From Dudresnaya verticillata (taxonomy: Eukaryota), in the NCBI GenBank assembly GCA_977862235.1, contig OZ374561.1:1798001-1862000 (forward strand): DNA of 64,000 nucleotides. The letters are read 5' to 3'. The notes beneath the pieces were generated by a model. That model had not been told where the DNA came from and made no database searches. It saw only the letters and a program-made list of their open reading frames with translations. A program made the translations under genes and the position numbers. This document shows positions 16,134-38,462 of this stretch, in pieces (within the stretch, counting starts at the first letter, position 1; each line of letters opens with the position of its first letter).

Positions 16134-16184
16134 CTTACCTTAGTCTTTCTATTCTAGAATAGAAAATATAATATCTAAGGTAAG
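16134..16184. repeat. Nested palindrome/hairpin
   Basis: CTTACCTTAG...CTAAGGTAAG arms around the perfect 20-bp palindrome TTTCTATTCTAGAATAGAAA. Confidence 0.8.
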
Positions 16185-16187
16185 TTG

Positions 16188-16465
16188 TCACCTTCGCGCA
16201 GTACGAAGCGATACATTAGGAATCCGTCTGCAGTAAGCTCCCTAGGTAGCAAGCAACTAACAGACTAAACAGAATAGAAAGGCCACGGTGATGATAAGTT
16301 TTACTCGATGTTTAAGGTGAGCTCACGCGAGCAACAAAGGCCCATGGGCGAGCGCACCAGAAAGGCTAAGGTGAATCATCACCTTCGCGCAGTACATTGT
16401 GCTACACTAGGAATTTGCCTACGGTAAACCCCGAAGAGCTCCACAGATAGCAAGCAACTAACAGA
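16188..16465. repeat. Two diverged ~80-bp direct repeats (16188-16264, 16379-16465)
   Basis: Both start TCACCTTCGCGCAGTAC and end TAGCAAGCAACTAACAGA. Confidence 0.75.
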
Positions 16466-17509
16466 GTGCTTTGAATTGAGATACTTGATCATGCTCGAAA
16501 AGAGGAAAAAGACATATTCGCAATCGCGCAAGAGATGTAGGGCGTTACACAGGAGGCCGCACGGTCAATGCATTGTATGCACTGTAGAAATGCATTGTAT
16601 GTATTGTAGAAGTTGAAATCGTTGCCGTGGTCAGAATAGCCTGATATGTTCTAGTCCTGAATGTTATATACACACAGTCTATTGTGTTCATCGTTCCCAG
16701 AATAAGGAGAGGAGGATATGCTTGCTAGGGCGTCCTGAAAGTTGAAGCGCTTGGGAAGTCCCAAGAGAGGACTTCCAAGAGAGGGAGATGTGGCTATAAC
16801 TATGGACTGGAAAGCTGTCGTCGCCCTGAAATTTTCACAGCAGAGGCCGCAAGGTAATCGTTGGAGTATTGCATGTGCATTTGTTTGATCGTCTCTAGTC
16901 CTTTTTTCCAAATCCAGCCCAGGAACAGGGCGATTTCTGGATGCTAACTATCTTTTTAAGCCAGGCCATCGCTTGTCATAACTGAAGTAGTCTCGAAGAA
17001 ATGTGGGAGAAGCTGACCCTGAATAGTGGCCAGTTACAGCTACTACAATACATACAGCGCTATCATTGGGAAGTGACTGCAGAACCTTTCATCATTTCTT
17101 TTTCGATCTACTCAACTTGAGGATTTGATCTGTGTGAAGGGAAATTTCCTATCATGCCATTCTGGAAGAACTTTCTTCGCATTAAAATCTGAATTCTCGA
17201 ATATAGTACATACAAGGCTTTCACTCCGTAGTGAATTTTACATGAAAGCCATTAATGGCGACGCAACGACTCCTGAACCTCGGGGGAGTTCTCCCGGTTA
17301 TTGAGCACCCTTCGAAAGTTTGGTTTGCACTAATGAAGCATTCTTGCACTGAACGCAAGTGAACAAGTCGAAGCAATTCTGCAGGACTGCCCTTCTTAAT
17401 TGCCTCAGTAACACACCCAGTGTAGAACCCTGTCGCGATAATAGTTTTAAACGGCTAGAGCGAGCGAAGTTTGGCATGCTGTTTGGTGAAGAATAGAGAA
17501 CGGTATCCG

Positions 17510-18487
17510 TGTTGGAATGCAGCCGCAAGAGAGCGCGCCGCAAGAGAAATTAAAATCAAACGTCGGTTTATTGCGTTAAGTAAGGGATATAGGAAGACTG
17601 TCAGCTAGCTAAAACAAACCATAGTTAGGAATAGAGAGATAGGATAGAATTGCCGGGCAAAACGAAAGCGTATATAAGCCGCCGTCGCGCGGCAACTTGG
17701 ACTAAAGAGGCAGACAAAAAACCCAACCGAAACCAGCAAGCCGCTCACGACAGCCTGTCCCCTAACCAAACCAACACACGATACGCCCATTTTGAGTGGC
17801 GTGTGTGTACTACTGTAGTAGAATGGCTTTCAAGCCAGAGTAGACGGCCACACAGCACGACAGCTGTCCTGAAAGCGTGATCCCACTCGCGTGGTTGGTA
17901 GCTCGAAAAGGGGTGGTAGAGACTTGAGAGGGCGGCAAGCCCTGCAAAAGAGGGGGAAAAGGGAAGGCGAACCGTACTGCTTAGAGCAGTCGTCGTAGGC
18001 AGCACGGCTTGTAAACGCCTAACGGGGGGTGTAGCGGTGATACCGTGAGAGTCCAACAAAAGGGGAAAAACCCAAGGCACACACCGCTGCCCTTTTAGTG
18101 CGGGGCCCCTGCTACTCAGGGGCCTAATAAATACGGCGGGAGCCGAAAAGGTACTACCCGCTCAGTTAGAGCTATAATGCTAACAATGAGCTAATACTGT
18201 ACACTAACAGTTACACTAGCGATTAAAAATAGGAATGAGCGGTCATCCCGCTTCCGTACGTACGGCGCCATTGTAAGGCGCCACGCCAAAAATAGACGTG
18301 CCATCATGGCGCGTATCCGCCACTCAGCGCGCATTGTACTCACGTAGTTAATTGTCCCATGGCGAGCAGCCATCTCCCTCCTGCATCCCACGCCTTACAG
18401 ACGTCGCGTGTACACGTGGCTCCTTACAGCGCCCCAGCGCTCGTTATACCACAACTACTCCCACCACCCACCTTGTTTTTAGTGACA
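17510..18487 (+). repeat. Copia 5' LTR, split by a solo LTR (17510-17813 + 18459-18487)
   Basis: Matches 38393-38724; TATATAA at ~17671. Confidence 0.92.
17814..18453 (-). mobile_element. Solo LTR of a Gypsy subfamily related to the 18801-32947 element, inverted
   Basis: TSD ACTAC (17809-17813, 18454-18458). Reverse complement starts TGTGGTATAA, ends CATTCTACTACA and shares blocks with the Gypsy LTR. Confidence 0.9.
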
Positions 18488-18800
18488 TTCATGAATTTAC
18501 GCCAAAACCACATCATCAACTGAGTAACCGTTACTAACCGAAACAACTCAGTAGGCGACAAAACATAGCTCTGTCTCACAGTTGAAATTGATCCTGATTG
18601 ATCATTTCACTGTGTGACATCTAATACTGCCATTTATTGGCTTGTCGTTTAAAAGAGTCAAAAGTAACTTGATTACTACAACTATCTTCAACAGATACCC
18701 GCACTACATGACGCACGTCAACTAACCAAGACATCTCAAGCTTACAGTGGCGATAGTCAAAAGAGCCGCGAATGACCCAGAAGTCATCCGTGAGCGCCAA

Positions 18801-19421
18801 TGTGGAATAATTAGCGCCCGAGCGCTGTAAGCACACACGTGTACAGACGACGCCTGTAAGGCGTGCGGCGCCCGAGGGCACGATGGTTGAGATGGCTGAT
18901 TATCATTGGTTGATTAATCCTGGTCACCCATATTTTTGGCATGGCGCGCCAGACAGCGGCGCGCCTGTACCTCGTAGTGGTACTACCACTCATTCCTATC
19001 ATTGGATTGTAATCCACCATTCAGTGTACAGTATTAGGTAACTGTCATTATTATAACTCTAACTTAGAGTGGGTAGCATTTCCGGCTTCCCGCCGTATTT
19101 AATGGGCCCCTGAGTAGCAGGGGCCCCGCACTAAACCGGTAGCGGTGTGTACTTTGGGCTGTACCCATTTTCTGGTCTTCCTACGGTGCCACCGTGTTTC
19201 CCTTGCCTTGGGCGTCTACAAGCCCTATCGTGTACGACGATTGCTCTACGCTGTAGGGTTCGCCTTCCCTTTTTCTTTGTTTCTGGGTATTACACCCACT
19301 ACAAGTCTCTACCACCCCCCTTTTCCCTTTTCCTTTGAGCTACCGCCCACCGTGAGTGTGTGTCCCCAGGACAGCTGTCGCGCCGTTTTATCGCCGACTA
19401 CCTGGCCAAGGGCCAACTACA
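18801..19421 (+). repeat. Gypsy 5' LTR (621 bp)
   Basis: TGTGG...ACTACA; duplicate at 32323-32947. Confidence 0.95.
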
Positions 19422-19422
19422 G

Positions 19423-19435
19423 TGGTCTCCCGACC
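19423..19435 (+). promoter_or_regulatory. Gypsy primer-binding site TGGTCTCCCGACC (tRNA uncertain, possibly Tyr)
   Basis: TGG-starting tract 1 nt after the LTR, complementary to a tRNA 3' end ...GGUCGGGAGACCA. Confidence 0.75.
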
Positions 19436-19853
19436 TAGAACAAGCTCTCAGGGTCGGACCCTTTTCTACCTTGCCATCGACAGGCCGAATCGAGAAGTCA
19501 AGACAGGACGGAGTGTCCGTTGATTTTCAAGGTTCCAACCTCTCGAAGGGCAAAACCCTAGTCGTCTTACTGTCGACGGTTTCTACGCTTCACGTTAAGC
19601 TCCAGAATAGCGTCAAATCTGTGAGCAAGCACAAGTTCGTTTTACGGTTTTATCCGTTTTTAGAAGTACCCTCTCACGGCGGAGTGACGCCCGGAGTGAG
19701 ACTACCTCAACAGGTTTTCCGTGCATCCTGAGAAAACACGAGTATAATACGGTTTCTACCGTCGAGGAGCCTGGGAAGAAGTCCCCGCTACCACATCGGC
19801 TGAACCGAGAAGAACGTCATCAGACCGACGATACAGGTCCTGTTGAAGTCAAG

Positions 19854-22565
19854 ATGCCTACATCTAATGGCGATACAACGCGCCCCGGCTTATCTAGCCG
19901 AGGCGCCAGTCGTACAGGCAGCCTTGCCTCTGTAAGAACGGTAGGCGCCCGCACCCGTGCGGTCGTAACCGCTCTTGCAAACAATCCGGCAACGGAGGAG
20001 CTGGGACCGCCGCCCCAAACGACCGGCGTCCCAGCTGAAGAAGAACCACCTGGCCCTGGTAGGGATCAGGTCCCTGACGGAGAAAATACGGTCCGAACCG
20101 TTGGAGAAGCCCCCGCTGACAACGGGGAGAACGAAGGTCCAGGCCGTATAATGATGCCGCCGCCCCTGGCGTTAGCCAGTGTTCAAGCTATGGGCGGACG
20201 AGCCCAGGAAGAAGAAACTCCGGCAACTCCGGACGAGGAGTTGCCAATTCGAACGAAGTATCATTCGTCTGAAATCCGCTGCTTCACGGAGCGTGAGATT
20301 GGACGAATGGTCGAATTAGGCATCGAGAGATCCTTGACGACGAGCGTCGTGGCATTGTGGGAAAGCCAAGCTGATGATACCTTTCTAAAGGTCAAGAGGT
20401 ACATTGACGAGGCATCCGCGCGCTGTGATGATCGCCTCCTGGCGAGGTGTCAACAAGAGATTGAATCTCGAGGTCGACCAGGTCCTCTCAGAGGATTAGA
20501 CGAAGAGAGGGTCGAAACCCTGCAGGCGCAAGTGGATTCCCTCGGGGACCAATTGGATACCGTCCACGAGGAACTACACGCACTCAACAAGGTTACCGAC
20601 CTAACAAGGACAGAAGCCGTAATGGCTATACAAGACGTTCAACGGAACGTCGACGACACAAGGTGTGTCGAACAAGATCGAGCCATCGAGCTTTTACGCA
20701 AAGATCTCGATGGAGAGAGACGGAAGGTCGCGTTGCTAGAAGCAAAGATGAGGCGACTTAATCGTGAAAGGGACTTAATCCCTGAAGTCAAACGACGACG
20801 CTCCCCTGTGCCTCGAGGTACCAGGGACCGTCGCAAGACGTCTCCTCGACGTGACTCGGGAGGGGAGTCTGGAAATGACGACTTTGGTCGTGAGAGGACG
20901 GAACACCCTCGGTGTGATTGCCGGGCGACGCACGGTTCCAACGTGTGCCGCAGCCGGCTTGACTCACGCCAAGACCGGTACTCAAGCCGCAAAGCTGAAG
21001 ATCAACGCCGAAGCAATTCCTACCCCGCTCCGAACCACTCGGATGAAGATGAACCCACCTCGCGAGGTCTTTCCCGACCGTCATGGAGCTCTTGGAGAGG
21101 CCCACGTCGGACGGGACTCAAGGAGTTGACTCCACGAAACCCTTCCTTTGTACAGGTTCTTTCGTATCGACGCTATCGGTTGTTGAATGTCGATTCATAT
21201 CGAGGACCGGAAGTAACGGAAGCCACTTCCAAGAATATCAAACGGGTTAAATCCGTAATGAGAAGTCGCCGCTTTGATGGGCGTGACCCAGTTTCCATAA
21301 TTGGCTTTCTGGCCACGTTGAAACGACAGTTGGATCAAGCCCAAGTCAGTGAAGGCGCTGCCATTCTGGTTATCCCAGAGTTCTTGGAAAAAGACGCTAA
21401 GGACATGTTCGAAGCCAATTTCGATGCCGCAGGTGACGACAATGGGGGTTTCAATGAGTGGCCGGAAGCCATTAATTACCTCCTGCGTACTTACGCAAAG
21501 GACGTCTACATCGAGAAGATTTCTTCTGAGATGGACACGATGATTCAGGAGTCTGATGAGGAGGAGGTTACGTTTTCGAGACGTTTGCAGAACAAAGCGC
21601 GAAAGGTCGCAGGTGTTTACTCAGAGCAAGACCTGATCACACGTTTTATACGAGGGCTACTACCTGCGGTCAAACCGCTTTTGAGTACGTCATCACTGGA
21701 CCCTCGCACGGCGCGACTGGCAGACTACGTTGAGCTCGCAACGGCTCAGGGAGATTCCCACCGAGCCCTTGTGGGTGGTGGACGCTCCAAGAAGGTGAGC
21801 TCAACGCTACCCCGGAAAACCCTCTCCAGGGTGAAGACGCACAAGTCTGGACGAGCTCTTCTCATTTGCCAGAATAAGAAGCAGGTGTCCTCGGATTCCG
21901 ATTCATCAAAGAGCAGTAGCTCTGACGCGGATAGCGAGGACGCTGTGGTGGCTGCCATCGACCACGAGGCGCCTCCATCCACGGTAACCCAATCAGACTT
22001 ATGGTCTGGGGCACCCAGTGACCAACCATACTATGGTGAAGTGGAAGCGGTTCTACAGAACTACAACCACCGATTGCCTGGATGGGCACAACCAACAAGG
22101 ACTCAGCGTCCTGGGTGGGTAACAGTCGAAGATGCACCCAATGACATTTGTTTCGAGTGCTATGGCGTGGGCCACAAGAAACCGAATTGCCCATATCTGG
22201 CTCGCACGGATGAACCGTCATTTGAGGCGCTAAAACGCCGACAGTTTTATCACTTGTCGCGCGAGCAGAAGACATGGTTAGCCACCATAAGGCGCCTACC
22301 CGAGTTCGCAAACAGAGATATCCGTGGGGACCACCGCGACTACGCATCGTCAGGTCGGGCCGGTGGGCCGCCGCCAGGCACGCATCAAAATTTGGGGTCA
22401 ACCCCAGGCAGGAACGGACATGTCCAATTTCAAGCGGGGCTTAATCACCCGGTTGACACTCCCAGACACCCACCGGCGGCGCCACGCTCGCCAAGACCAG
22501 GGTCGCGAACCCTTCCGCCGCCTCCACCGCTTCCGCGGTCGCCTGCTAGCAGGGCGAAAAACTAG
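19854..22565 (+). CDS. gag: Gypsy Gag, 903 aa, with long N-terminal extension
   Basis: Capsid-like region (FDGRDPVSIIGFL...FIRGLLP) and CCHC knuckle CFECYGVGHKKPNC. Confidence 0.9.
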   Translation: MPTSNGDTTRPGLSSRGASRTGSLASVRTVGARTRAVVTALANNPATEELGPPPQTTGVPAEEEPPGPGRDQVPDGENTVRTVGEAPADNGENEGPGRIMMPPPLALASVQAMGGRAQEEETPATPDEELPIRTKYHSSEIRCFTEREIGRMVELGIERSLTTSVVALWESQADDTFLKVKRYIDEASARCDDRLLARCQQEIESRGRPGPLRGLDEERVETLQAQVDSLGDQLDTVHEELHALNKVTDLTRTEAVMAIQDVQRNVDDTRCVEQDRAIELLRKDLDGERRKVALLEAKMRRLNRERDLIPEVKRRRSPVPRGTRDRRKTSPRRDSGGESGNDDFGRERTEHPRCDCRATHGSNVCRSRLDSRQDRYSSRKAEDQRRSNSYPAPNHSDEDEPTSRGLSRPSWSSWRGPRRTGLKELTPRNPSFVQVLSYRRYRLLNVDSYRGPEVTEATSKNIKRVKSVMRSRRFDGRDPVSIIGFLATLKRQLDQAQVSEGAAILVIPEFLEKDAKDMFEANFDAAGDDNGGFNEWPEAINYLLRTYAKDVYIEKISSEMDTMIQESDEEEVTFSRRLQNKARKVAGVYSEQDLITRFIRGLLPAVKPLLSTSSLDPRTARLADYVELATAQGDSHRALVGGGRSKKVSSTLPRKTLSRVKTHKSGRALLICQNKKQVSSDSDSSKSSSSDADSEDAVVAAIDHEAPPSTVTQSDLWSGAPSDQPYYGEVEAVLQNYNHRLPGWAQPTRTQRPGWVTVEDAPNDICFECYGVGHKKPNCPYLARTDEPSFEALKRRQFYHLSREQKTWLATIRRLPEFANRDIRGDHRDYASSGRAGGPPPGTHQNLGSTPGRNGHVQFQAGLNHPVDTPRHPPAAPRSPRPGSRTLPPPPPLPRSPASRAKN

Positions 22566-25500
22566 CTAGGGGGGAACCGGTTTCGGTTCACTGGGGAACC
22601 CCAGTCGTATCGGAACCCCCCGATCCTTCAGAGAAATGTGACTTCTTAAGCTCCTCCTCTACCAACCGATCGGTGTCGCGGGAAACCCCGCCTTCTCTTC
22701 CAAAGAAGATTTTAGAACGCCCTGTGGGCCTACCTCCCGGGTATTGTGGTGCAAGACCGTGGGGTAAGCCCCGTTTTATATCGCTACACCCGCCCGCGCG
22801 GTGAGCGGACGACGGTACACGCGGATCACCCGCGACTATAACATACGCCGATTACCGGCAGCTTGGATGGGCCCGTGCGCGGATGCCGCGCGTGCGAGAT
22901 CCGGCCAATGGTTGACGCGCCCTTGGCACGGTGCGTGCGCGCCCATACAGCACGCGCCAACAGCACACAAGGGCGACACGTCTCCACGTGTACACGCGCA
23001 ACACGCGCACCGAATATATCCGAGGGGATCCTCGCTCGGGTGCGCTCCAGCAATGCGCACCCTTAGATTACACTGATTTACAGTGCGGTAGTAGTATTTC
23101 TACGCTAGGTATTTCTGCGCGATATTTTAGTGAGCTCGCGGTGCGCGCGCATGCCAAGTGTCAAGCGCACGGCGCCACACACGCGCGCGCATCTCCTGCG
23201 GGGGATACTTAGTATACGGGGTGAACCCCCCTCACAGTAAAGCGCCAAGCAGGCCTAGGAACTCGAGGATACCCCCACCTTCGCACCTGGTGACGACACC
23301 GTGCGCGACTTGGGCTTACGTACCCCGTTCTACCGCCTGGCTTCAACAGCACTCAGCGGCGTAATCGCCTTCATCGTTCTACGTGCACTACGGCACTCCA
23401 ACGTGGGCCGGGGATTTACAGTCGGCCCCGCCCACGTTTCAACCACCCGGGGCACACCCCGTGTCCCTAGCTCTACCACCCAACCGGCGCCGACTTCACC
23501 GTCGTCGCCTGCTACCAACCCGTGGGAGGACCACTTCGAACTCTGGTTCTGGGGTTGCGCCCTTGTTCGGGCGTTGCACCACAGGTATAAGTATCATGAG
23601 TATGTTAAGGACCCAGTTTTCTCTCTTTCGAGATACAACTATAAAGTTGTCGCGTCCGTGGGGACTTCTGTTGAGAAACTTACTCAAGTGCTCTCAGTCT
23701 TGGACACTGGGGCGGGCCCAAACCTCATCCGAGCCGACGTGCTCTCTTTGGAAGAACGGAAGAAGATATCTTCGACCGGATCGATCGTGAATTTGACATC
23801 CGCGTCAAGTCACCGCTTAACAACTATGGGAATGATCTCCCTGGCCGTCAGAATTGGCTCCTACACGGTTCGACAACCGTTCGTCGTAGTCAAGGCATTA
23901 GCCGTTGATATGATCTTGGGCTGTACCTTTATCGATACCCATGTCGAGGCGTTGCGTGTACGCAAACAAACCATCGCGCTACGGGACGGCTCGGTACAAC
24001 CGATTCTACGGCGTCGGTGCGGTATCCCGAGAGCCACGAGCTCTGGCGAGCCCATGGAGGTCCCTCCCCTACCTAACTCGCGACTCGTGAGAGTTGCCCA
24101 AACAACTAACTTACTACCAGGTTCAGAAACCTGGGTCGCCGTCACGTGCACGGCCAAAGGAACGCACTTCCTAGATTCGTCCCAACGTCTATACGACCGT
24201 CAACAAGTGATCATCACGAATGGCATCGTCAAACTCCAAGAGAATGTTCTCTTCCGGGTCAAGGTTGCCAACTTTTCTTCCCGCACACAGCGGTTGAACA
24301 AACACCAAGTGATTGGTCGCGCAGTTCCAGCTCCCACGGCCACGCCTGCATATTCGGTTTCCATCGACGACGTCTCCGAGGATACAGTCTCACAACAAAA
24401 GGACACGAATCCTCAAACGGAGACATCCTTCGATGTAGGGGGGGCAGGGCTGGCTGCTGCTCTTGGCGCGACCAATTCCAAACCGGGCGTTACAACCGCC
24501 GCTGAGAAGCTAACAGTCGATGACTTAGCCCTGGAACACCTCTCTACGTCTGAAAGACGTCTCGTGCGCAAGATGTTGCGACCCTTCGCAGATATGTGGA
24601 ACGGGAAGCTCGGGACCATAAAGGTCACGGAGCATCGAATCGATCTCACTGACGGGGCAAAACCCGTATTTGCACAACCATATCGGTCTGGACCGAAGGC
24701 GCGACAAGCGGAGCAAGATGAAGTCGACAAGATGTTGAAGGAAGGGGTCATAGAGCCAGCGCGCTCTGAGTTCGCAAGTCCAATGGTACTGGTGAAGAAG
24801 CCAGACGGATCCCTCCGTTTCTGCGTTGATTACAGAAAGCTTAACGCGATAACCATCAAGGATTCTTACCCTCTCCCGCGAATGGACGAGTGCTTAGACT
24901 CGTTGGGTGACGCCCAATATTTTACAACCCTTGATTGCAATTCAGGGTACTGGCAGATACCAGTCGCGGCGGAGGATAAGCCAAAGACCGCTTTTACCTG
25001 TCATGCAGGTTGCTTTCAGTTCTGCAGAATGCCATTCGGTCTGTGCAACGCACCAGCAACGTTTCAACGAACAGTTGACATTTTACTATCGGGATTCCGA
25101 TGGAAGTCTTGTCTCGTCTACTTGGACGACATCATAGTCTTCTCTAAGAGTGTCACCGAACACTTAGGTCACGTTCAAGAGATCCTCTCTGTGTTGAAGG
25201 AAGCGGGTGTGTCGCTCAAGTTGAAGAAGTGTAATTTCTTCACAAAAAGCGTGGACTACCTCGGACACGTGATCCGACCTGGTCTCCTGGAGGTAGCTAC
25301 CAAGAATACACAAGCAATCGAAGGCTTCAAGAAACCTACGACGCAAACGCAACTACGGTCGTTCATTGGGCTATGCAACGTCTATAGACGTTTCGTACCG
25401 AAATTTGCACGCGTAGCGTCTCCGCTTAATAGGCTACTACAGAAGGACGTTGGTTTCGAATTACCTCCATTCGATGAACGGCAACGCGAAGCTTTCGCTT

Positions 25501-28007
25501 TACTGAAGAAAGCCCTCATCGCGCCGCCAATACTCCGACTTCCTAAGGAAGACACACCCCTCTCGGTCGATACCGACGCGTGTGACTACCAAATAGGGTG
25601 CGCCCTAATGCAAATGGAACCCGACGGGACTCGACACCCTATTGGCTTTTGGAGTCGGGGCCTAACACCAGCAGAACGGAATTACTCCGTCGGCGAGAAG
25701 GAATGCCTCGCTGTAGTCTGGGCTACCCAAATGCTCAGACCATATTTGGAAAGGTCTCATTTCGACCTCTACACCGACCATCAGGCTGTCAAATGGATGA
25801 TGAGCATGACGGACGCGTCCGGACGTCTAGCGCGATGGCGCTTACGTCTCTTAGAGTATGACTTCACGGTTCAATACCGTAAGGGAAAGAAAAATCAGAT
25901 TGCTGACGCTGTCTCACGTTTACCTACCTATGGTTTTACTAAGTGGGAACCGGATCTCGAGATCCCCTGCTTCATAATCGCTGATAGCGATGGGGAAGAT
26001 CCCCCTGACCCTTTGGCGAAGGAAACATCGCGAGCCAACACCAGGTCGCGACCTTTGGAAGAATGGGAGATGGAACCCGAAGACAATTCGTTCGAGTCGG
26101 GTCTCGAGGACGAGCAACTGATAGCCAACGTGGCTGAGAAGGAAATGGACGAGAAGAGTCTTTCACTCGTCACAATAGAGGAACTTCTTCGCACCCAACG
26201 AACAGACGAATTCTGTAAGGGTATCCGATTAGCCATCGAAGCGGGAAAACCGGGATGTTACCTGGAAGACGAACGCGGACTCCTAGTCCGAAGGTCTTAC
26301 ATTGACCGAGCTTTACAGGTAGTCATACCTAGAGTTCTTCAGGAGAGAGTCCTACATCTTGCACACTACCCGGATATGGCTGGCCATCCTGGTGGCACAC
26401 AGATGTACCACAACTTGAGAAGGCAAGTGTATTGGCCAGACATGGCCCTTGCCGTTTACTCGACAGTGCGTAACTGTGTCAAGTGCGCGATGGAACGAGT
26501 CCAGTTGAGGAAACATACTTCGCACATGAAGTTATTTCCGGCTACTATGCCGCTCGAATTCCTAGGAATCGATATCTTGGGCCCGCTTCCGCGATCAAGC
26601 CAGGGGAACGAGTATCTTCTCGTCATCACCGATCGTTTCTCGAAACTTACACGGGTAGTCCCGTTGAAGACGGTAACGGCTTATACGGTAGCGAGGGCGT
26701 TCTGCGAACACTTGGTGTATATCTACGGGCCACCCCGTTACGTCTTGTCCGACAATGGATCGCAGTTTGCTTCGAAGTTCTTTATTGCCGTCTGCGGCAT
26801 CCTCCGTATTCGGAATATGTTCACCTCTACATATCATCCGCAGACCAATGGTCAGACCGAAAGGTTCAACCGCACCCTTCTAGCAGGGTTGAGACACTTC
26901 ATCGCAGATGATCAAAAAGATTGGGACGAGTTCACGTCGGCACTAACGTATGCGTATAATACGACCGTTCATCGTGCTACGGGATTCGCGCCCGTTGATT
27001 TGGTTCTATCCAACCCACCTACTTCCATCCTCATGGAGAAAGCTGAAACGGTCGACGTAGCTAACGTATCTGCGACTAATGTCAAGAAGCGGCTGACCGC
27101 TAGACTTGAGAAGCTGATGGATACAGCGTTGCCTCGGCTAAAATTAGCGCAACGTCGCTACGAAGCTAACTTCAACAACCGCATGCGTCTGAGCAATCAG
27201 AAGATACGCCCTGGACAATGGGTCTTTCTCGAAAGAGAAACTAAGATGAAAGACGCTGGAGGCGTAGCGCGAGAAGGAAAGCTGTTCCCAAAGGCTCTGG
27301 GGCCTTATAAGGTCCTCGAGAGAGGAACGCACACCGTCGTGCTTGAAGTCAAGGGGGAGCGAGAGTCAATCTCGTTGGACCGCGTGACATTGGCGCCCTC
27401 GCCAGACGAAGAACTCGGAGCTCTAGGACAGGACTCCGCGATAGTTGGTGAAGCACCAGAAGCTGGAAACCACCTGCAACCACCTTCTGGGCCAGAGCCC
27501 ACCGATGAACCTTCCACTGAAGAGGCGCGAAGAGCGCAAGATGAGGAACGCTCAAGAGAGGCTGTGGGACCCGCAAATGCGACGACTGTCCCCTCTCCAT
27601 TAATTGGAAACACTGACAATATCGATAGCACCGTGGGCCCGGTTTCTCCTAACATACCCCCTACAGAGGTATCTGTTTCCCTGTCTCAAGGCGGTAACAC
27701 CCCACAACTCTTACAGGAGTCAAATCCGCCTGCCGCTCCGACGGCAATGCCGGCGATTGAGGATGATGTGACGGCGCCTCGCCGTAAGTTTTCACGCTAT
27801 AAGAAAGCACCCCCACGTGAGTTCGTGTATGACAAAATCGTCAACTATGACGCCGATACCCAAAAGTACCGTATCAGGTGGTTCCAATGCCCAGCGTCGC
27901 AGGACACCTGGGAACCAAGGGATCACCTCCCTGACAATTTAGTCAAACGGTATCACCGTTCCAGGAAGATCCCCCTTCCAGGAGTAACTGCCGACGCAGT
28001 GGCTTAG
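22556..28007 (+). CDS. pol: Gypsy Pol (PR-RT-RNaseH-IN-chromodomain) in the -1 frame, leader interrupted by the solo LTR at 22745-23583
   Basis: LDTGA protease, YLDD RT, TDAC RNase H, HHCC and DDE integrase, GPY, chromodomain KYRIRW...DTWEP. Confidence 0.95.
22745..23583. mobile_element. Solo LTR (839 bp) of a third family inserted in the Gypsy pol leader
   Basis: 10-bp terminal inverted repeat TGTGGTGCAA/TTGCACCACA; TSD GGTAT (22740-22744, 23584-23588); removal restores the pol frame. Confidence 0.9.
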
Positions 28008-28200
28008 TCGATAGACGAAGACGTGGAGTCTCGGGAAAACACAGCCCTAGAGCTCTACAGAAAGAGACTGTCGGCTTAACATGGAAAAGGAGGAGTCAAT
28101 CTCCTGCAGCGAGGGTTGGGTTGCTTGTGGAAGCCGTCATTATATGAAACGTGGAACACGTATGCTGGTGAAGAAAAGGTTGATACCTTGGTTTGGTTAG

Positions 28201-28325
28201 AAGATATGGATAGATGAATGGAGATTCAAGATATGGATAGAAGACATGGATAGATGTGGATAGATGTACAGAAGGTTCAAGACCTGGAATAGATGAGATC
28301 AAGGGAAACCTGGACATGGGTAGAA
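28201..28325 (+). repeat. Degenerate short-unit array (AAGAYATGGATAGA-like) after Gypsy pol
   Basis: About 4-6 imperfect copies of (A/G)TGGATAGA. Confidence 0.6.
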
Positions 28326-29282
28326 CCCTGTAATAATAAGACTGGAGCCAACGCTCACATGTATAGAAAGAAATACTACCACCGGTAGGAAGGAAGCTTT
28401 ATGCCAATATGGTAATTAAGCTATGGGGATAGGCTCCAGCCACTTATGGATTGAAATCCAGGAGTGAGGATCTGCCCTCATGTTGGACACCTCCACCACG
28501 GCAATAATCGTGACGGGAATCCACGAAAATACACTCGTCTGCCCTAGCAGAGTTACCATAACTTTGTCGCCATTACGAGGCCGTCGCGGGTGAGGCTTAC
28601 TACCATGGAGGAGTCGCCTCACCATAACGGTGACCTGACGGCCGCAGATGTGGCATAAGCCCCCTTGTCGACGACGACTAGGGGATGTTAACGACCTTCT
28701 TCGAGGGAAAGGACGGTGTGTTGCTCCAGACGCCATAGAGGCGAATTGACCCGCAAATCAGCTATGGCTGAAGAGTCCCTACATCGGTTGGCGCCAACAA
28801 GAACGTAGCTCTACAGTATGTTTTTGTCTACTGTAGAGTCGCCTCTATCATTGCTGGCAATAACTGATTTGGCGAAGCGCCAAGGGAGGCGGATTGACTA
28901 ACGAATCATTATCCTTTGGCACCACAATCCACGGGGCACTGCCCCGGCACCCCCGGCTCTCGCCACCAACTTCCTTGAGGAGTCTACCGCGCATGTGCAC
29001 GCGACTCCCTCTCCGAGTGAAGGACCTAGAAAAGAAAAGGGCGCGACGGCCTTGAGTTAAAGGAAGTCACTCGACGAACGTCGACGGGGGCTCCTTCGGA
29101 GCCTAGTCGCAGAGGCTTGTTAATGAGGGCCCCCTCAGTGGTTGGCTCTACTTATGGAAATCGGCGTACCGAAGTGACACAAACAACAACAAGTCACTTT
29201 ACTTCAGCGGATAAGCCGCTCTTGCCCAAGTGTGGCGAATTACGTGGCTCACGAGCCATTACTCGAAGAAGGACAACTTCGG

Positions 29283-31559
29283 CTAATCCGATAACAGGTC
29301 AATAACCTCATCCTCACCCAACGGAGGATTCGGCTTAGGTGCCGAGTGAGATACGACGACACGTCGCACCTCGCGCACGACGTGACGACTCTCCCCTCCG
29401 CGACGCAGACCACGACCACGCCGACTCCCCTCTAACTCATTTAACGCACGGCGACTGGCCGTTGGCTGGTCCACTTCCATGGCATCAACGCCATCGGTCT
29501 GGCTACCCTGTACGGGAGGGGCTACTTTGTCCTCTTCCTTCACGACGAGCTCAGTCTTCACGACGACGTCGTCTTGAGGGGTTACGTTGGACTCTCCAAC
29601 AGTGGGCGAAGGCCCAGTCTCGACATCCGCAGGCTTCTCGCTCTCTTGGCCGGTGCCACTTGGTTTAACCACCAGGGAGTCGCCCTTAGTACGACTAGCA
29701 TCGGGCTGGCCCCGAGAATCATCTCGGGGAGAGATCGTGTTGAGAAACTCGCCAGTAGCGACGAAGCCAGACATGTGCGTCGTAGGAGCAGCCGGCGCCA
29801 TCGTCGATGATGAGGCGCCCGCTGTATTCATCGGCTTGGGAGCCGAGTGGGAAATGGCAGCTCCATGACTCGCCGAAGGCGCCACAGCTGACTCTTCGCG
29901 AGGAACCACCGAGGTGTCACCACCTGTCATTGCGCGCGGATCCAAACCATCGACCTTGGCCGATTCCCTCTTCACTCGCGGCGTAGCAGAATGGCCAACG
30001 CCCAAACGCGGTTTGATGTCAACATCAGCGGGGTATCCCTTCAAGGGTGGGAGCCTTGACAAATGGGTACGAAGTTTCTCCAAACGCTCCACAGGACCTG
30101 GAGTCCTCATCCAATTGGACTCATAGTCCACCATCACCTCCTCGACCCAGTCGACGAGGCTGTTAACGGTGAGATTCCGTAGTTCCCAATGCACCGCGAG
30201 GCGGATAGCCAAACCCCGTTTGTTGAAGACGTCACGCAAGACGTGGTTGGCCTTACCATGGCCAGTTGATGCCGTCGCGTACGGACCTTGAGACTGACCA
30301 TCGACAGTGTCGTCGAATGACGGGACGTCACCTGGAGTCTCCGGACCGGGGTCCTGCCAACTGGCGCTCACCCACCCGTGAGTCACACCGGTAATGCGGT
30401 TTCCCTCATCCAAGACCAGGGGTCTCTCCTCTGTCGGCTCAGGCTGAATCAAGAAGTCCGGCAACACCGGATGCCAATCTTCTGGGTCAAAGTCCACCCA
30501 ATCTCCTCGGTCATATACAGGAGTGAGATGACAGGTGTTCTCCCGGAGATGAAGATTCCGTTTGGAGATTCGGCTCCACCGAATGCGGTCTATGAAGACC
30601 AAAAGGGCCTTCAAGTCCTGTGCGTCCTCGGCGTCCGCCGACAGATTGTCGATACCCATCTCCTTGATGGCAGCGCGAAGGGGCTGGTTGATGAAATACA
30701 GCATCCAATGACGGGCCTCATAGACGAGAGTCTGCGCGACCAAGACGATCCACTCGTGACGAAAAAGGGTCCAGAGTACGCTCTCATCCATGGCTCGCGC
30801 CATCATGTTCAGGCCAAAGTAAGCCACGATGGTGGGGGTACCCACTGGCATCGAATATGAGACCTCATACGACGCGTGGTCGTCGGGCACTTGAGGGTAC
30901 TTAGCCCTGTAATACTCTGGTTTGATAGCAACCACCTCTTGGCAATGACAAGGGATGAGGCATCCAGTCTTGTGGCGTTGACGTCGCTCAAAGCGAGAAT
31001 AAGCCAACGGCTTGGCCGTCTGCGGGTTGTCAAGCGCATACTTGAGGTTGGTGGACTCGTCCCACCGGACGATGCGAGCTAGCGTATATGGATAGTTATC
31101 CCGCCCCTTGCGAATAAGGGGGCTGGCATGGCTAACCATGCGCAGGTCCCACTTTCCACTCGAGTGGATTTCCCGCATCGCCCCCAGCTGGTAGTTCAGC
31201 TTCCCGGCGATACAGTTCGTGAAGAACACCTCATGCCTGAATCGCACGTATGCGAGGTCCCAAAGGTAACAGGACGCCTCATCCAGCAGACCGGGAACGA
31301 GTCGGTTGGTCCCGGTCAACATGTCCACTCGAGCACGGCTGACGCTGTTCCACATACGACTCTGAGCACCACGACTCCCGCGTCGTTGGATGTCCTCACG
31401 ACCAGCCCCAGCTCGGGCTTTGATGTGCGCCAAGTCGGTGCGTACCAACCAGTCGCGACTGCGCTTAATGACAATCGGCGCACCCGCCGAGTCGACTTCA
31501 TGGCCAAGAACGCTGGCGCTAGAGCCAGCCTCTCCATAGACGAGACCCAAGTTGGTCAT
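29283..31559 (-). CDS. Antisense accessory ORF of the Gypsy element, 758 aa, unknown function
   Basis: Uninterrupted 2277-nt ORF between pol and the 3' LTR; aromatic-rich N-half, low-complexity C-half. Confidence 0.8.
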   Translation of the reverse strand: MTNLGLVYGEAGSSASVLGHEVDSAGAPIVIKRSRDWLVRTDLAHIKARAGAGREDIQRRGSRGAQSRMWNSVSRARVDMLTGTNRLVPGLLDEASCYLWDLAYVRFRHEVFFTNCIAGKLNYQLGAMREIHSSGKWDLRMVSHASPLIRKGRDNYPYTLARIVRWDESTNLKYALDNPQTAKPLAYSRFERRQRHKTGCLIPCHCQEVVAIKPEYYRAKYPQVPDDHASYEVSYSMPVGTPTIVAYFGLNMMARAMDESVLWTLFRHEWIVLVAQTLVYEARHWMLYFINQPLRAAIKEMGIDNLSADAEDAQDLKALLVFIDRIRWSRISKRNLHLRENTCHLTPVYDRGDWVDFDPEDWHPVLPDFLIQPEPTEERPLVLDEGNRITGVTHGWVSASWQDPGPETPGDVPSFDDTVDGQSQGPYATASTGHGKANHVLRDVFNKRGLAIRLAVHWELRNLTVNSLVDWVEEVMVDYESNWMRTPGPVERLEKLRTHLSRLPPLKGYPADVDIKPRLGVGHSATPRVKRESAKVDGLDPRAMTGGDTSVVPREESAVAPSASHGAAISHSAPKPMNTAGASSSTMAPAAPTTHMSGFVATGEFLNTISPRDDSRGQPDASRTKGDSLVVKPSGTGQESEKPADVETGPSPTVGESNVTPQDDVVVKTELVVKEEDKVAPPVQGSQTDGVDAMEVDQPTASRRALNELEGSRRGRGLRRGGESRHVVREVRRVVVSHSAPKPNPPLGEDEVIDLLSD

Positions 31560-31637
31560 CGCTGTGACGATGCGAACCCCACGTCGCGAGACGTCTCGAG
31601 TTGAAGGCTTTGCAAAATGGGAGCGACCCCAGTTATT

Positions 31638-31797
31638 CTTCTAAGACACGGAGGCCTTGTCTTCGGTATGACCGTCGGCTCCAAAGCCGATCCTAAGAAA
31701 GGCGAGCGCGACCTGAAAATACTTCTAAGGCGCGGAGGCCTTCCTGGAAATGCGTCGGCTCCAAAGCCGATCCTAGGAAAGGCGAGCGCGACCTGAA
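31638..31797. repeat. Two ~80-bp tandem repeats just upstream of the antisense ORF
   Basis: CTTCTAAG..CGGAGGCCTT...CGTCGGCTCCAAAGCCGATCCTA.GAAAGGCGAGCGCGACCTGAA at 31638 and 31722. Confidence 0.85.
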
Positions 31798-32310
31798 TCG
31801 CTCGAGCGATGCTTATGGGCGACACGACGCCAGTCGTCGACGCAAACGTTTTGGCTACGAGACAAAGGAGAAACGCTCCCGCGCGCTGCGCAGCACGGCA
31901 GAAAGACGCGCCCGAACACGACGCGCGTCGTCGCGAAGAGACTAGGGTGAAGAAGGGCGGAAGAGTGATGAAGGAGGAGGGCAGACTCGCAGGAGTGTTG
32001 AGGTTGAGTGTCGAGTCGGGGGATGACCGAGAGTGCGAAATGGGCACAGTCGGCTCCGCGCCGAGTTTGAAATAGACGCCCCGTCTGGCGGGTCGCGTTG
32101 TCGATACCAGTCGTGGCGCCAAAAGCGAGCCACCGACGACGGCTGTCGCCGGGCTGATCTGGCGCAGGCGCCGACGACCGTTCGTGGAGGCTTCTAGAAA
32201 GCCAGAAATACCGCGCTTGGCTGGGCCAATCCTTTCAACGAGATTGCATATCTCAACGGTCGGAACAGTTGGAAACAGCATTGCTGTACTGAGCGGGGTC
32301 GCTCAGTTTT

Positions 32311-32322
32311 AAGAAGGGGCCG
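32311..32322 (+). promoter_or_regulatory. Gypsy polypurine tract
   Basis: AAGAAGGGGCCG directly before the 3' LTR. Confidence 0.7.
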
Positions 32323-32947
32323 TGTGGAATAATGAGCGCCCGAGCGCTGTAAGCACACACGTGTACAGACGACGCCTGTAAGGCGTGCGGCGCCCGAGGG
32401 CACGATGGTTGAGATGGCTGATTATCATTGGTTGATTAATCCTGGTCACCCATATTTTTGGCATGGCGCGCCAGACAGCGGCGCGCCTGTACCTCGTAGT
32501 GGTACTACCACTCATTCCTATCATTGGATTGTAATCCACCATTCAGTGTACAGTATTAGGTAACTGTCATTATTATAACTCTAACTTAGAGTGGGTAGCA
32601 TTTCCGGCTTCCCGCCGTATTTAATGGGCCCCTGAGTAGCAGGGGCCCCGCACTAAACCGGTAGCGGTGTGTACTTTGGGCTGTACCCATTTTCTGGTCT
32701 TCCTACGGTGCCACCGTGTTTCCCTTGCCTTGGGCGTCTACAAGCCCTATCGTGTACGACGATTGCTCTACGCTGTAGGGTTCGCCTTCCCTTTTTCTTT
32801 GTTTCTGGGTATTACACCCACTACAAGTCTCTACCACCCCCCTTTTCCCTTTTCCTTTGAGCTACCGCCCACCGTGAGTGTGTGTCCCCAGGACAGCTGT
32901 CGCGCCGTTTTATCGCCGACTACCTGGCCAAGGGCCATTCTACTACA
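32323..32947 (+). repeat. Gypsy 3' LTR (625 bp)
   Basis: By eye it differs from the 5' LTR by one substitution near the start and a 4-nt indel near the end. Confidence 0.95.
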
Positions 32948-32952
32948 GCCAA

Positions 32953-33479
32953 GCCGCACTCCGACGAGAACTAGCAGCCGCTGCGGACTCCGAATCAGAT
33001 GCTTCCTCTGACAGCCTGTCCGAAACGCCTCTAATCGAAACACAGGCTCAACTGGCATTTGATTCAGACTCCAGTTCATCCCGAGCTCAAGCTTCTTCAT
33101 CGACTGCGCCCCCCCTTCTCGAAAACTGCGATCTATATCTGCTACCGCCGCTGCCTCCATTCTGCGCACGGCCGAAAGTCGTATTAAGCGTAAGCGACGC
33201 GCTCCCAAACCACCGAGTCATCACTGCTTAGTGTGTAAGCGCCCCTTCATTACGAAGCACCAGCTTACGGTTCATCAAGGAGGGAAGCCGCACCAACGCA
33301 TGGTTACAGCAGAGCGCGATCGAGCCCGTGGAGGATACTCGTGCAAGCCCTGTGACCTTAAATTTACAAGCAAGCACGACTTCGACAGCCATCAACGCGG
33401 AAGGAAGCACCGTTCAAGACTCTCTAAGATTCAGATCAACGACCTCACGAAGAGCCTGGAAGCCAATAGGGCAAAGTAA
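32953..33479 (+). pseudogene. 3' part of a Copia pre-gag ORF with JAZ/matrin-type C2H2 zinc fingers (5' part at ~18600-18800)
   Basis: HCLVCKRPFITKHQLTVHQGGKPH and YSCKPCDLKFTSKHDFDSHQRGRKH. One frameshift, probably at the C7 run (33109-33115). Frame joins across the Gypsy insertion. Confidence 0.75.
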
Positions 33480-33523: not shown

Positions 33524-35105
33524 ATGGTTAACGTTACGCTTGCATCTGTACGAAACATGCTTAATACGTACAAGCCGAGCTCACACGAGCAACTGGACTT
33601 GAAAGCCGCATTAGCAGTACATATCAATGCAGACCCTCAACAATCTAATGAGGAAATAATTACTTCTCTACGTGAAGATTTCCCAATAGAAACTCTATAC
33701 ACGAGAGCAACTATCAAAGGGCCGGCTACATTGTTCCGTGTTTTCAGAGACTATCTTACGCTCAAGGGTCTACGCTATCAACAGCACCCTCAAAATAACA
33801 GGATTGCATATGGACTGCCCGCAATGTTCTACGAAAATGAGGATGAACAAAATAGAGCCATTGCTCTTCTGGTATCGGCTAGCTCTCAAACAGCCAGCAC
33901 TCCACGCTGGGAACTGCCGAGACAACTTCACAAGGCAGCCACACCATAGCCCCCATGATGGACGTCAAGCGACTAGCTCACAATATTGCGACCAGATTCC
34001 GAAACAGTGACAAATTTACTGGGAAATTAGGAGAAGACTTATCAGAGCATATCAATAACTATCTCGATGCTGCTAGAGACTATGGGCTAGACAACGCACA
34101 AAAACTACAGTTCTTTCACAATATTTTTTTGATGGGGAAGCCAAGCGCTTCTATAGAGATAAGGTAGTCGGTGTTTGCGACGTTTTTGGAAGTGCCGTTG
34201 GCACCATGCAGCGGGAATTTAACAATGCCACGAGGCAAAATCGTGTTCGAAAACACCTACAAAGCCTCCGACTAAATTCCATCGTGAAATCGCAAAAGTG
34301 CACGATTACCGAAGCTCTGGAAGAACTTCGAGAAACAATTACAAAATTTACGCCCCAGGGCCCTATTACGCACCGTTCAGAGGAGGACAAAGTCGAATAC
34401 CTCTACAAAGCCGTTGTTGGTGCTACTTGGGCTAAAACCCCACTCTCCAGTGCACAGTCCGCTAGCCCTCCTTGGGACTTCCAACAATTATATACCGCCC
34501 TCGATGCAGCTTGGTTGCAGGAGCAAGAAGAAGAGGAAGGTTGGAAAAAGGACGGCAACTCTCCAAAATATTCACCACCAGCAGATGGAAATATTCCAGG
34601 CCTTTATTATCAAGGACAAGGCACTTACGGCAAAGCACGCCGACCGGGTTCAAGGTCGTCTGTTCCGAGAAACTATCAACCATCACGACCTCCTCGTGGT
34701 ACAGACAATAGTACAGGACAGAACGGCACGGATAAGTTTGGTCAACCCCGTAAATGCCATAATTGTGGCAGTAAAGACCATTTTATAAGGCAGTGCAAGG
34801 AACCTAAAAACCTCCTCCGCAATATCGGTCGAATGATCAAACACAATCCCCAAAATTCTGGTCGAGTCTTATATGAATTATGCCTTCAAGTAGAAGATGC
34901 ACTTTTTAGTAGTGACGAAGAAGCCTTCAATGAGTTTTTTGCTGATACACCCAGTGCAAACGAAGATTCATCAGCATCAGAGCCGGAAAGTGCGAACCAA
35001 GATGAAAGCATTACAAACTTCCATACAAGAGTAGCAAACACAACAAAAAATTACCCTCCCGCTTCAATGGGCTTAACAAGCCTACTTGATCCCGAGGATT
35101 TTTAG
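33524..35105 (+). pseudogene. gag: Copia gag, broken by two frameshifts (~33900-33950 and ~34125)
   Basis: KFTGKLGEDL... capsid-like region and knuckle CHNCGSKDHFIRQC. Confidence 0.8.
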
Positions 35106-38100
35106 ATGGAGACGGCTATGTTCACCGACGAAATATGCGACCTCAGGAAATAAGTCCATTTTTCGAGACCGTCCTCCGAAAAAAGAGGTGCCGAATGAAG
35201 AAACCCACTACGAGATCCACTGCCGCCACATTATGGAGAAAAAGAAGAAAAGCAACAAAACCTCCTTCAAAAACGAACCAATTCAAGGTCCTAGAAACCA
35301 CCATCCAAGATATCTATTTGAGTCAAACCTCAAAACAGGATACATGGAACGGCGGTTGCGTTGACACAGACGCACAGCGCACTGTTATCGGATTTCGTCA
35401 AGCCAAGGCTTATTGTAGATATATGGGTATTAAGTTTAAACCCAAGAAAAATAGCAATCGCTACAGGTTTGGTGAGGGCGAACAAAAATCAATTGGGTCA
35501 ATCCCAATCAGAATACCCCTCACGGACAAATACTTCGCGATGATAGACGTAGACATAGTGCCTGCAAATGTACCTTTTCTCATCGGAATAGATATTATGG
35601 ACTCCATCGGCATCTACGTGGACACGGTAGAGAACAAAATACGCTGTCCAAAAGGAAAATGGAGCATCCCTGTCGTTAGGAAACTCGGACATGTATACTT
35701 GGAATGGACTAATACTGATCACATTCTATTTACTAAGTCAGAACTCATCCGATTACACAGGGGATTCCAACACCCCGCGGCAGACAAACTATATAACCTC
35801 CTGAAACGTGCAAGACCCAATGAGATGAATCAGGGCACTAAGGATATCCTCACGGATATTGCAAAATCATGTGATACTTGCCAACGACTCGGACCAAAAC
35901 CCCTTAGCTTTAAGGTCAAAATGCCACACTCAGATGATTTAGTGTTTGGCGCAGAGCTTTCATTGGACCTCATGTTCCTAGACTCAAAAGCAGTACTCCA
36001 TGTTGTGGATACGGCTACCCGTTTTTCCGCCGCAACTTTTCTAGATGCACATTCAATGGAATACGGACAAAGCTTGGAAGGAATCTGGCTTGCATTTATT
36101 GAGATATGGTGTACCATATATACTGGATACCCCAACAAAATGAAAGCCGACTCAGGTTCCGTTTTTACCTCCCCTAGATGGAAGGAACTGACTAAAACAG
36201 CCGGTATCGAACTGCAAATATCAGGAGTACAAGCTCACCATTCACTCGGTATTGGTGAACGAATGCATGCCCCACTCAGACGAATCTACGAAAAGGTACG
36301 ACTCAACCATCCCAATCATCCACCAGTTACCACTCTTAAGCTTGCCGTTAAAGCTATGAATGATACCATTGGCGAAAATGGACTGGTACCCTCCCTTCTC
36401 GCGTTTGGAATACTACCTCGTTTCCCCATTGTTAATTCCGAAATGCTTTCGCAACAAGAGCGTTTGAACGTCTTAACAGAAGCTCGAAGAGAAATGAACA
36501 CCATTATTGCCGAACGCAGAGTACTAGCTGCACTTCAACGCAGAATCCCATTGGCTGCGGACCGCATCTACCTACCTGGTCATATCACGAGAAGACAGGA
36601 AACGTCACAAATGGTTTGGCCCGTACTCGGTCATTGATTTTGATTTTGATGGCAAGATGGTCACTATCAAAAATAGTCATACGCAATTAGAGGAGAAATA
36701 CAGCAGTTCTCAAGTCAAGCCATACTATCGGGAAGCCCCTCCTCAAAACAATGATATACAACCCGAAGAATTCTTCCAAGACCTTTTTAGCATATTCCGC
36801 TCCAGTTCTCGGCCCACTCCCCCACCATTTACTGTCCAAATAAACGAGGTAATCAAACCAGAAGACAAACGTTCTAGCGATCATCGCTTCGAGATTGAAA
36901 AGAAAAAGGAAATACAAGGTCTCATTAATCGGGGAACTTGGAAACTCGTCATGAGTAAGGATGTAGACCCAGGAGCAAATATATTAGGCGGAAGGTTCGT
37001 TTTGGCTATCAAAGATGAAGGGACAGACCAGGAAGTCTGGAAGGCCCGATTTGTTGTCCAAGGACACCGAGATCGAATGAAAAGATACTTAGTACATGAT
37101 ACTGCTACTACTAGACAACATTCCACCAGAATGTTAATTGGCCTAGCCGCCATATTTGGCTTCCGACTATTCTCAACGGACGTCACGCAAGCTTATCTAC
37201 AAAGTGCAGAGAAACTAATGCGTGATGTATATATCAAACCCTCAGACGAATTCGAACTCGGAGAAGGCACACTATTGAAATTACTGAAACCCCTCTACAG
37301 ACTTGCCGACAGTGGCGACTACTGGGGCAAAACACTGCACGATCACCTGCAAAAGGAACTAGGAATGGAACCCACCACTCTAGATGGCGCATTTTTCTTC
37401 AAACTGCTAAATAAGAAGTTATCCGGAATGTGCATCACCTATGTTGATGACTTTCTCCAAGCCGGGGATAATAATTTCAAGCGTCACGCCCGAAAAACGG
37501 AAGAGCGCTTCCAGTGCCGAAAAAGGGTTTACGAAAATTTTCAGTTCCTGGGTATGGAGGTTGAAACAATAGGGTCAGAGTTTCGCATAAACCAACGGAA
37601 ATACATGTCCAAGCTAACATTGCTTCATCAACACGTAAGCTTCAAGGATTATCGTTCTTTACGCGCAAAATTAAGCTGGGTCACGTATACGAGACCAGAT
37701 ATAGCATTTGCGGTAGCTCAGAGCGCACAAGTTACAGAGGTTTGATTTGACAAGGACTCAAGTCTCCACATCAAGAGTCTAAATGCAGTTATACGCCACT
37801 TACGAAAACACCCGGATTTATCACTCAGATATCCCAAGCTGGATACGATTTCACTACGTGTACAGGTCTACTCAGATGCATCTTATGGCAACAATTACGA
37901 CGAAACATCACAACTTGGATATATCATCTTCTTGACCGACCGCTCTAAAACATGCCAACCAATTTACTGGTCTTCCCACAAATCTAAAAGAGTAAACCGA
38001 TCAGTTCTAGGGAGTGAAACAATGGCACTTGCAGACGCATTTGATATGGCTTTCGCAATCAGAAACGATCTACAAAACATGATGAAACAGTATATTCCAA

Positions 38101-38462
38101 TCGTCATGTTAATCAATAGTCTCTCTCTATTTGATGTCATCACGAAAGCTACTTTAACAGCCGAAAAGCGCCTCATGATAGACCTAAAGGTCGTGAAAAG
38201 CGCTTATAAGAGTAATGAACTCGCTCAAGTTGGCTTCATCAGATCACAGTTCAATCCTGCAGATGGACTAACCAAGAAAGGCGAGTGTGAGATTCTACTC
38301 CGAATACTCAACACCGCGATCTTAGACCATCCGACCAAACAATGGATTGAAAGGTCTGATCATGGTTTGTTTAGCAAAAAGGTTTCTGGGAGTGTTGGAA
38401 TGCAGCCGCAAGAGAGCGCGCCGCAAGAGAAATTAAAATCAAACGTCGGTTTATTGCGTTAA
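35096..38462 (+). pseudogene. pol: Copia pol (PR-IN-RT-RH), defective
   Basis: Protease site DTDA (DTGA expected), LHRGFQHP..CDTC, KARFVVQG, YVDD, DASY..ADGLTK. Frameshift near 36580 and in-frame TGA at 37743. Confidence 0.9.

Follow-up and report, generated by a model that had tools for sequence, protein, structure and literature searches.

A putative two-finger RNA-binding gene ahead of gag in a nested Copia retrotransposon of Dudresnaya verticillata

Introduction

Zinc fingers of the JAZ type bind double-stranded RNA (dsRNA) irrespective of its sequence (PMC6488673), gripping RNA helices with a kink and a pair of basic helices (PMC6488673; PMC9775027). JAZ itself is described with four fingers (PMC9775027), and the same finger fold is also reported to bind tRNA stems, pre-let-7 and snRNPs (PMC6488673; PMC9775027).

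LTR retrotransposons, Copia elements included, are already known to carry extra open reading frames (ORFs) (PMC6317226; PMC7264820; PMC5408684). These accessory genes, to which an SF1 helicase can be added (PMC6338049) and some of which have been proposed to act against silencing, belong for the most part to Gypsy elements or lie 3′ of pol in the descriptions of these sources, where no gene for a JAZ-type finger is among them. In green plants, to which the survey in PMC6317226 is confined, 582 of 5410 Copia elements were counted as having extra ORFs 250 codons or more in length; the characteristic type of extra ORF that it names is situated downstream of pol. A previous, sequence-only reading of this locus took the space between LTR and gag of Copia elements to be normally empty; in view of the 582 elements this premise is too strong, though the type named in the survey follows pol (PMC6317226).

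Two further systems are relevant to the organisation of the element. GalEa retrotransposons are described with TGT...CA LTRs, a 5-bp target site duplication (TSD), the motifs YVDD, TRPDI and ADxxTK, a DTG(C/A) protease and one large ORF, and in the fungal members a palindrome replaces the tRNA primer site, this hairpin site (CHSeq) being described for fungi only in that source (PMC5445492). In rice tungro bacilliform virus (RTBV), the first ORF has a non-AUG start and the upstream ORFs contain no AUG, which lets ribosomes reach the polyprotein (PMC3542737; PMC5902531), with initiation at a non-AUG start put at 2-30% (PMC3542737).

The present study characterised a Copia copy within a window of 64,000 nt of Dudresnaya verticillata (assembly GCA_977862235.1, contig OZ374561.1, positions 1,798,001 to 1,862,000, forward strand), the whole stretch of DNA to which all coordinates below refer. 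Compact genes and a plastid-type enzyme that begins with MAFV suggest a red-algal host, and an exact look-up of eight ORFs of the window in the protein collection gave no match. Upstream of gag, this copy holds a reading frame, here called ORF0, with two zinc fingers. A family of 12 relatives, a GTG codon at the start position of the family, and a depletion of methionine and AUG codons are reported here as new.

Results

Nested elements and anatomy of the Copia copy

Three elements are nested at the site: an outer Copia, a reversed solo Gypsy-type LTR and a young Gypsy chromovirus. The Copia (17510-38724, + strand) is bordered by the TSD ATCCG at 17505-17509 and again after its 3′ LTR, and measures 6418 bp (6.4 kb) once the two inserts are removed. 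Its 3′ LTR (38393-38724, +) has the 332 bp previously given as the LTR length. The 5′ LTR is split into a first part (17510-17813, +; 304 nt, one mismatch in 304 against the 3′ LTR) and a tail (18459-18487, +; three differences over 28-29 nt against the 3′ LTR end), between which lies the solo LTR (17814-18453, − strand; TSD ACTAC), about 77% identical to the LTR of the young Gypsy. Two Gypsy insertions, of related families, lie no more than 1 kb from the 5′ end of the Copia.

The young Gypsy (18801-32947, +) lies inside ORF0, with LTRs at 18801-19421 and 32323-32947, the TSD GCCAA on both sides and RT-RH-INT-chromodomain domains; its LTRs are 99.8% identical across 615 nt. The insertion had been recognised before, with an end at 32952 that included one copy of the TSD. 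Several features of this element were also recorded. The 5′ LTR is 4 nt shorter than the 3′ LTR, at its 3′ end, and is followed by a primer site (19422-19440) that begins with GTGG and is complementary over 9 nt to an internal part of a tRNA-Pro gene in the window. Between pol and the 3′ LTR, two antisense ORFs of 758 and 241 aa (29283-31559 and 31556-32281, − strand) are intact, rich in GC3 and without Pfam match, and two adjoining copies of about 83 nt with 86% identity occur in the same antisense region (31635-31797). Elsewhere in the window, non-coding DNA holds a 55-nt near-palindrome (13532-13586) and a 67-nt repeat pair with 75% identity (16175-16241 and 16366-16432).

Downstream of the Copia 5′ LTR, a 10-nt palindrome (18487-18496, +), which includes the last A of the LTR, occupies the expected position of the primer site. 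The 5′ leader (18488-18746, +; 259 nt) contains two short upstream ORFs (uORFs) of 10 and 5 codons and is structured, the folding of 18459-18700 giving z = −4.15, with the region folding back onto the LTR end; no Rfam match was found in 17400-39000. Beyond ORF0, gag (33524-35105, +) carries a CCHC knuckle, and pol (35090-38392, +) encodes PR-INT-RT-RH in a different frame, with a Pfam match to RVT_2 and a weak one to rve that stays under the cut-off (E 0.005). LTRs, TSD, gag followed by PR-INT-RT-RH, and a Copia-type RT are all features of a Ty1/Copia element. Besides the change of frame between gag and pol, the coding body has four lesions, namely gag frameshifts at about 33950 and 34123, a frameshift near 36570 and an in-frame stop at 37743, and the copy is dead. 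These lesions, the solo LTR that splits the 5′ LTR and the GTG start described below had gone unreported.

The LTR tail (18459-18487 against 38697-38724) differs at 3 of 28 nt compared with 1 of 304 elsewhere (Fisher P 0.002). Together with the four coding lesions, this divergence suggests a template that was already damaged or recombinant, or later LTR-LTR conversion; assembly errors are a possible alternative.

Judged by its motifs, TSD and LTR ends, the element appears to be GalEa-like: it shares the TGT...CA LTRs, the 5-bp TSD, and the RT and RNase H motifs (YVDD, TRPDI and ADxxTK) described in PMC5445492. The metazoan tRNA-Met primer site is absent, and the palindrome resembles CHSeq1, as in fungal GalEa elements, with no clear CHSeq2. 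The present Copia combines RT motifs of the metazoan GalEa type with a primer region that resembles the fungal type as these are described in that source. Unlike GalEa as described there, with one large ORF, it changes frame between gag and pol at about 35100 and has a separate ORF0 ahead of gag; its protease reads DTDA in place of DTG(C/A), which may be a lesion.

Reconstruction of ORF0

Three pieces make up ORF0: the GTG start and a conserved N-terminal helix motif (18747-18800, +), an acidic, Ser/Ala-rich linker that ends at a frameshift region (32953-33110, +), and a segment with a family-specific helix, a basic patch, two JAZ/matrin-type fingers and the stop (33111-33479, +). The earlier proposal that the frame is continuous across the Gypsy agrees with the 18 codons at 18747-18800, which match the frame after the insert. 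A single frameshift suffices, as had also been proposed, since the finger frame, which opens at 33063, overlaps the post-Gypsy frame, which stays open until 33229; judged by the relatives, the shift lies close to 33110, at the suspected run of C. Between the stop codon (33477-33479) and the gag ATG at 33524 there are 44 nt, likewise as first described.

The codon at 18747, at the start position of the family, is GTG, and A in position −3 with G in position +4 gives it a strong context. Twelve of the 18 residues encoded by 18747-18800 are identical to the N-terminus of the relative P0026, and none of the other 127,888 six-frame positions of the window matched as well without gaps, the score being 57 against 30 for the next. 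P0026 and P0090/P0155 carry at their N-termini the motif that immediately precedes the Gypsy; this outside evidence supports the join and places the start at 18747. P0090 and its cluster-mate P0155 differ at residue 1 only (V and M, respectively), and the Atlas gives this residue as M; a GTG start in P0090 too is the simplest reading of this difference. An in-frame ATG at 18708, after which a stop intervenes, may represent an older start.

Two other accounts of the frame were considered. TSD, terminal inverted repeat and poly(A) were sought around ORF0 and none was found, and in the absence of insert boundaries a nested transposon was rejected. Fusion of ORF0 to gag was likewise rejected, an in-frame stop separating the two and the junction lacking stable structure (z +1.23).

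The third-codon-position GC content (GC3) of ORF0 is 0.50, compared with 0.39 in gag-pol (P 0.005) and 0.65 in five host genes (P 5e-5). Lying between the two and unlike both, it leaves acquisition from elsewhere possible. ORF0 could accordingly be a captured gene, from the host or another element, present once or in few copies and of no use to the Copia; transduced host sequences are described as one or few copies in sense orientation (PMC7264820). We consider such a capture unlikely, as the space between LTR and gag accommodates the full span of the family, start motif and stop included, insert boundaries are missing, none of the relatives found is named or annotated, and the family-wide depletion of methionine reported below would be unexpected in an ordinary host gene.

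Zinc fingers

Two CX2CX12HX5H fingers begin at 33225 and 33342. The Pfam scan that the sequence-only reading had suggested gave 39.6 bits for zf-C2H2_jaz (cut-off 22.6; E 5.5e-10) and 30.9 for zf-met (cut-off 21.2). Scored as single fingers with PF12171/PF12874, finger 2 reached 28.7 bits and finger 1 22.6, exactly at the cut-off. Spacing, Pfam cut-offs and kinked fold agree in placing the fingers in the JAZ/matrin (U1-type) class, as first proposed. Their description as widely spaced was right only in part, the spacer being 16 residues here against a median of 38 in other matrin-finger matches. A host gene with six ordinary C2H2 fingers also occurs in the window (56193-57863), without relation to ORF0.

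A third, decayed finger had also been proposed at 18687-18734, within the leader. This segment has neither a C-x2-C pair nor any cysteines, includes a stop and lies upstream of the N-terminus of the family. With X at the stop, it gave no Pfam match at E<=10; on the finger profile of the family it ranked 1192 of 127,816 with −21 bits, where the real fingers scored 64 and 39, and its C-terminal half alone ranked 577. Without cysteines, with a stop inside, no Pfam match and a low profile score, nothing supports a finger here and the candidate was rejected; the segment may at most be a remote finger remnant, given a profile rank within the top 1%. The observation as first made thus largely holds for a two-finger ORF0 ahead of gag, and the three-finger architecture is replaced by one of two fingers.

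ORF0 resembles JAZ/ZNF346 and dsRBP-ZFa (2mkn, 1zu1) in its CX2CX12HX5H fingers, kink and basic second helix, JAZ being its best structural match and ZFa the second-best PDB sequence match of the family profile. It differs from both in having two fingers, with a spacer of 15-16 residues, instead of four, and in its pre-finger helix with an invariant Arg, its acidic N-half and its residence in a retrotransposon. It also lacks the three or four widely spaced fingers of a JAZ/ZNF346/Wig-1 orthologue.

Predicted fold and nucleic acid binding

The AlphaFold model of the finger piece has a pLDDT of 93 and a pTM of 0.53, the latter leaving the relative position of the domains unsure. Helices are predicted at 49-56/59-72 and 88-96/98-121, each pair forming a kinked two-helix fold. 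The top structural match among 48,161 chains is 2mkn, a JAZ finger with dsRNA (Z 6.2, rmsd 2.3, 44 residues), which covers finger 2 only; fingers of U1C, Mod5, TUT4 and TUT1 follow, the top score being tied within 1 Z unit with fingers that do not sense dsRNA, and a Z of 6.2 is middling. The net charge of the finger region is +12 here and ranges from +1 to +12 across the family. On the strength of the modelled fold, binding of RNA double helices by the ORF0 protein is a good prediction.

Fingers that fold similarly occur in several RNA-virus polyproteins of BFVD (E 3e-3 to 7e-3). One of these is annotated as U1-type, and the fingers are a possible viral parallel.

The same protein could instead bind DNA or chromatin, as an LTR transactivator or a targeting factor with the acidic N-half as activation region. 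An acidic low-complexity N-half combined with a basic patch would suit such a role, as would the weak Foldseek and profile matches to DNA-binding finger arrays; in the Foldseek comparison no PDB entry reached E<=0.001, the highest-ranking rows being DNA-binding Kruppel arrays. The H-x5-H spacing with a second helix and the lack of a short Kruppel-type linker speak against this alternative, and Pfam and VIA both favour RNA-binding U1C/JAZ fingers, making DNA binding improbable.

Family of relatives

A phmmer search of 1.84 billion representatives gave 501 matches at E<=0.001. The 150 matches listed are mostly long multi-finger proteins; among them, at least 12 relatives of 100-264 residues, chosen by eye, align with ORF0 along a single long stretch, with identities of 25-37%. 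Each of the 12 has two fingers, separated by 15-16 residues, and 11 of the 12 keep all eight finger ligands, P0087 having Tyr at the last His. With ORF0 included, 13 of 13 members match both PF12171 and PF12874 at E<=0.01. In a tree with 55 other closely spaced finger pairs, the relatives and ORF0 fall on one side with support of 95/98, in an analysis of 100 columns whose bootstrap had not converged. The helix before finger 1 is specific to the family and contains an invariant Arg; in a leave-one-out analysis, 12 of 13 members rank first in this helix against 752 other segments. When the 150 matches listed were scored on this helix, no long fused member was found among them, a further point against an ORF0-gag fusion. 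Acidic N-halves are shared by ORF0, P0026, P0027 and P0065.

The 12 relatives have neither name nor annotation, their sources being Logan, ENA and JGI only, and some of their 90% cluster-mates look frameshifted. No DNA context was found for them, nor for any second copy of the element, in viral or metagenome contigs or in prokaryote genomes, collections that hold little eukaryotic DNA. Word-index protein searches with the finger piece returned nothing at longer or similar lengths, and a protein search with the family profile recovered three members, all known already.

For the present copy only, ORF0 is shown to sit in a Copia. The relatives probably sit in Copia leaders as well, and ORF0 is likely an extra gene of the present Copia lineage.

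Depletion of methionine and AUG codons

Internal methionine accounts for 5 of 1882 residues in the family, whereas its share is 2.1% in the 138 other listed finger proteins, 2.2% in gag-pol and 1.67% in a set of ten host ORFs. In matched finger cores, which were compared alone to avoid bias from start calling, four Met were observed against 24 expected (P 5e-7). Trp is as depleted in the family cores (1 against 9.7 expected), and part of the Met signal may therefore be compositional, which weakens the point.

At the nucleotide level, the 885-nt leader contains 5 ATG where its dinucleotide shuffles have 10.4 (P 0.017), and where CAT occurs 19 times; about 4% of 885-nt windows elsewhere hold 5 ATG or fewer. 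One of the five ATGs is in frame; the remaining four would open short uORFs, two of which span the junction with the Gypsy or come after it. ORF0 itself has 3 ATG in 582 nt, one of them in frame, and is thus not AUG-free as in RTBV. The context of the gag AUG is strong, with A in position −3 and G in position +4.

This arrangement resembles that of ORFs I-II of RTBV and badnaviruses, in which a non-AUG upstream ORF with few internal AUGs precedes the capsid/RT ORF on one RNA; ORF0 likewise has a non-AUG start, few internal AUGs and a strong downstream AUG. It differs from RTBV as described in PMC3542737 and PMC5902531 in starting at GUG instead of AUU and in encoding an unrelated protein, and from both RTBV and badnaviruses in being a single upstream ORF in an LTR retrotransposon; leaky scanning, moreover, is inferred here. 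By this analogy, the AUG depletion may be the signature of an upstream ORF that is bypassed by leaky scanning. The depletion of Met and AUG is the main, though indirect, reason to see the relatives as upstream ORFs on a longer RNA and not as ordinary host genes.

Discussion

The evidence presented here leads us to lean, with some reserve, towards regarding ORF0 as a pre-gag gene of its Copia lineage, expressed from GUG with leaky scanning and encoding a protein that coats the element's own double-stranded RNA. ORF0 would be read at a low level from GUG, with most ribosomes scanning past it to the gag AUG, and its protein, presumably nuclear, would coat double-stranded parts of the element's RNA, thus protecting or handling that RNA. 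Shielding from Dicer and RNA silencing is about as plausible a purpose as a role in RNA chaperoning, export or priming. Of the earlier interpretation, the JAZ/matrin class stands, and the proposal of an element-borne extra gene has gained from the relatives and the avoidance of AUG; the three-finger architecture falls away.

A narrower case of the same explanation, in keeping with the function first proposed, holds that ORF0 is a true silencing suppressor that would sequester long dsRNA or siRNA in trans, as a viral suppressor does. Sequence-independent binding of dsRNA by JAZ-type fingers (PMC6488673) is consistent with such a function, as are the Dicer-like and SERRATE homologues described in a red seaweed (PMC12026948), the weak suppression reported for an insect retrotransposon helicase (PMC6338049), and the U1-type fingers of some RNA-virus polyproteins in BFVD noted above. 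The fold is nevertheless common to binders of tRNA, snRNA (as snRNPs) and pre-miRNA (pre-let-7), making silencing suppression one of several possible uses. Sequestration of dsRNA or siRNA is stoichiometric, whereas a GUG start implies low output; a weak start and little protein would suit local or regulatory action more than the sequestration of siRNA in bulk. On balance, a suppressor acting in trans seems doubtful. The broadest claim, that a widespread algal Copia lineage has as its first gene a GUG-started, leaky-scanned, dsRNA-binding silencing suppressor, is equally tentative.

Among the papers listed by searches of mostly open-access literature, none was seen to report a gene for JAZ-type fingers within a Copia element or upstream of gag. 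Genes of the ORF0 type are easily missed, as they lack an AUG start and are masked as repeats. The published counter-silencing proteins of LTR retrotransposons that were found are few and the cases weak, and ORF0 adds a small, foldable candidate that has natural intact relatives. Were the proposed reading to hold even without suppression, a conserved, GUG-started RNA-binding gene before gag would constitute a new layout of the Copia genome, one that would parallel plant pararetroviruses; were suppression to hold as well, an LTR retrotransposon would be equipped with a dedicated, virus-like anti-RNAi protein.
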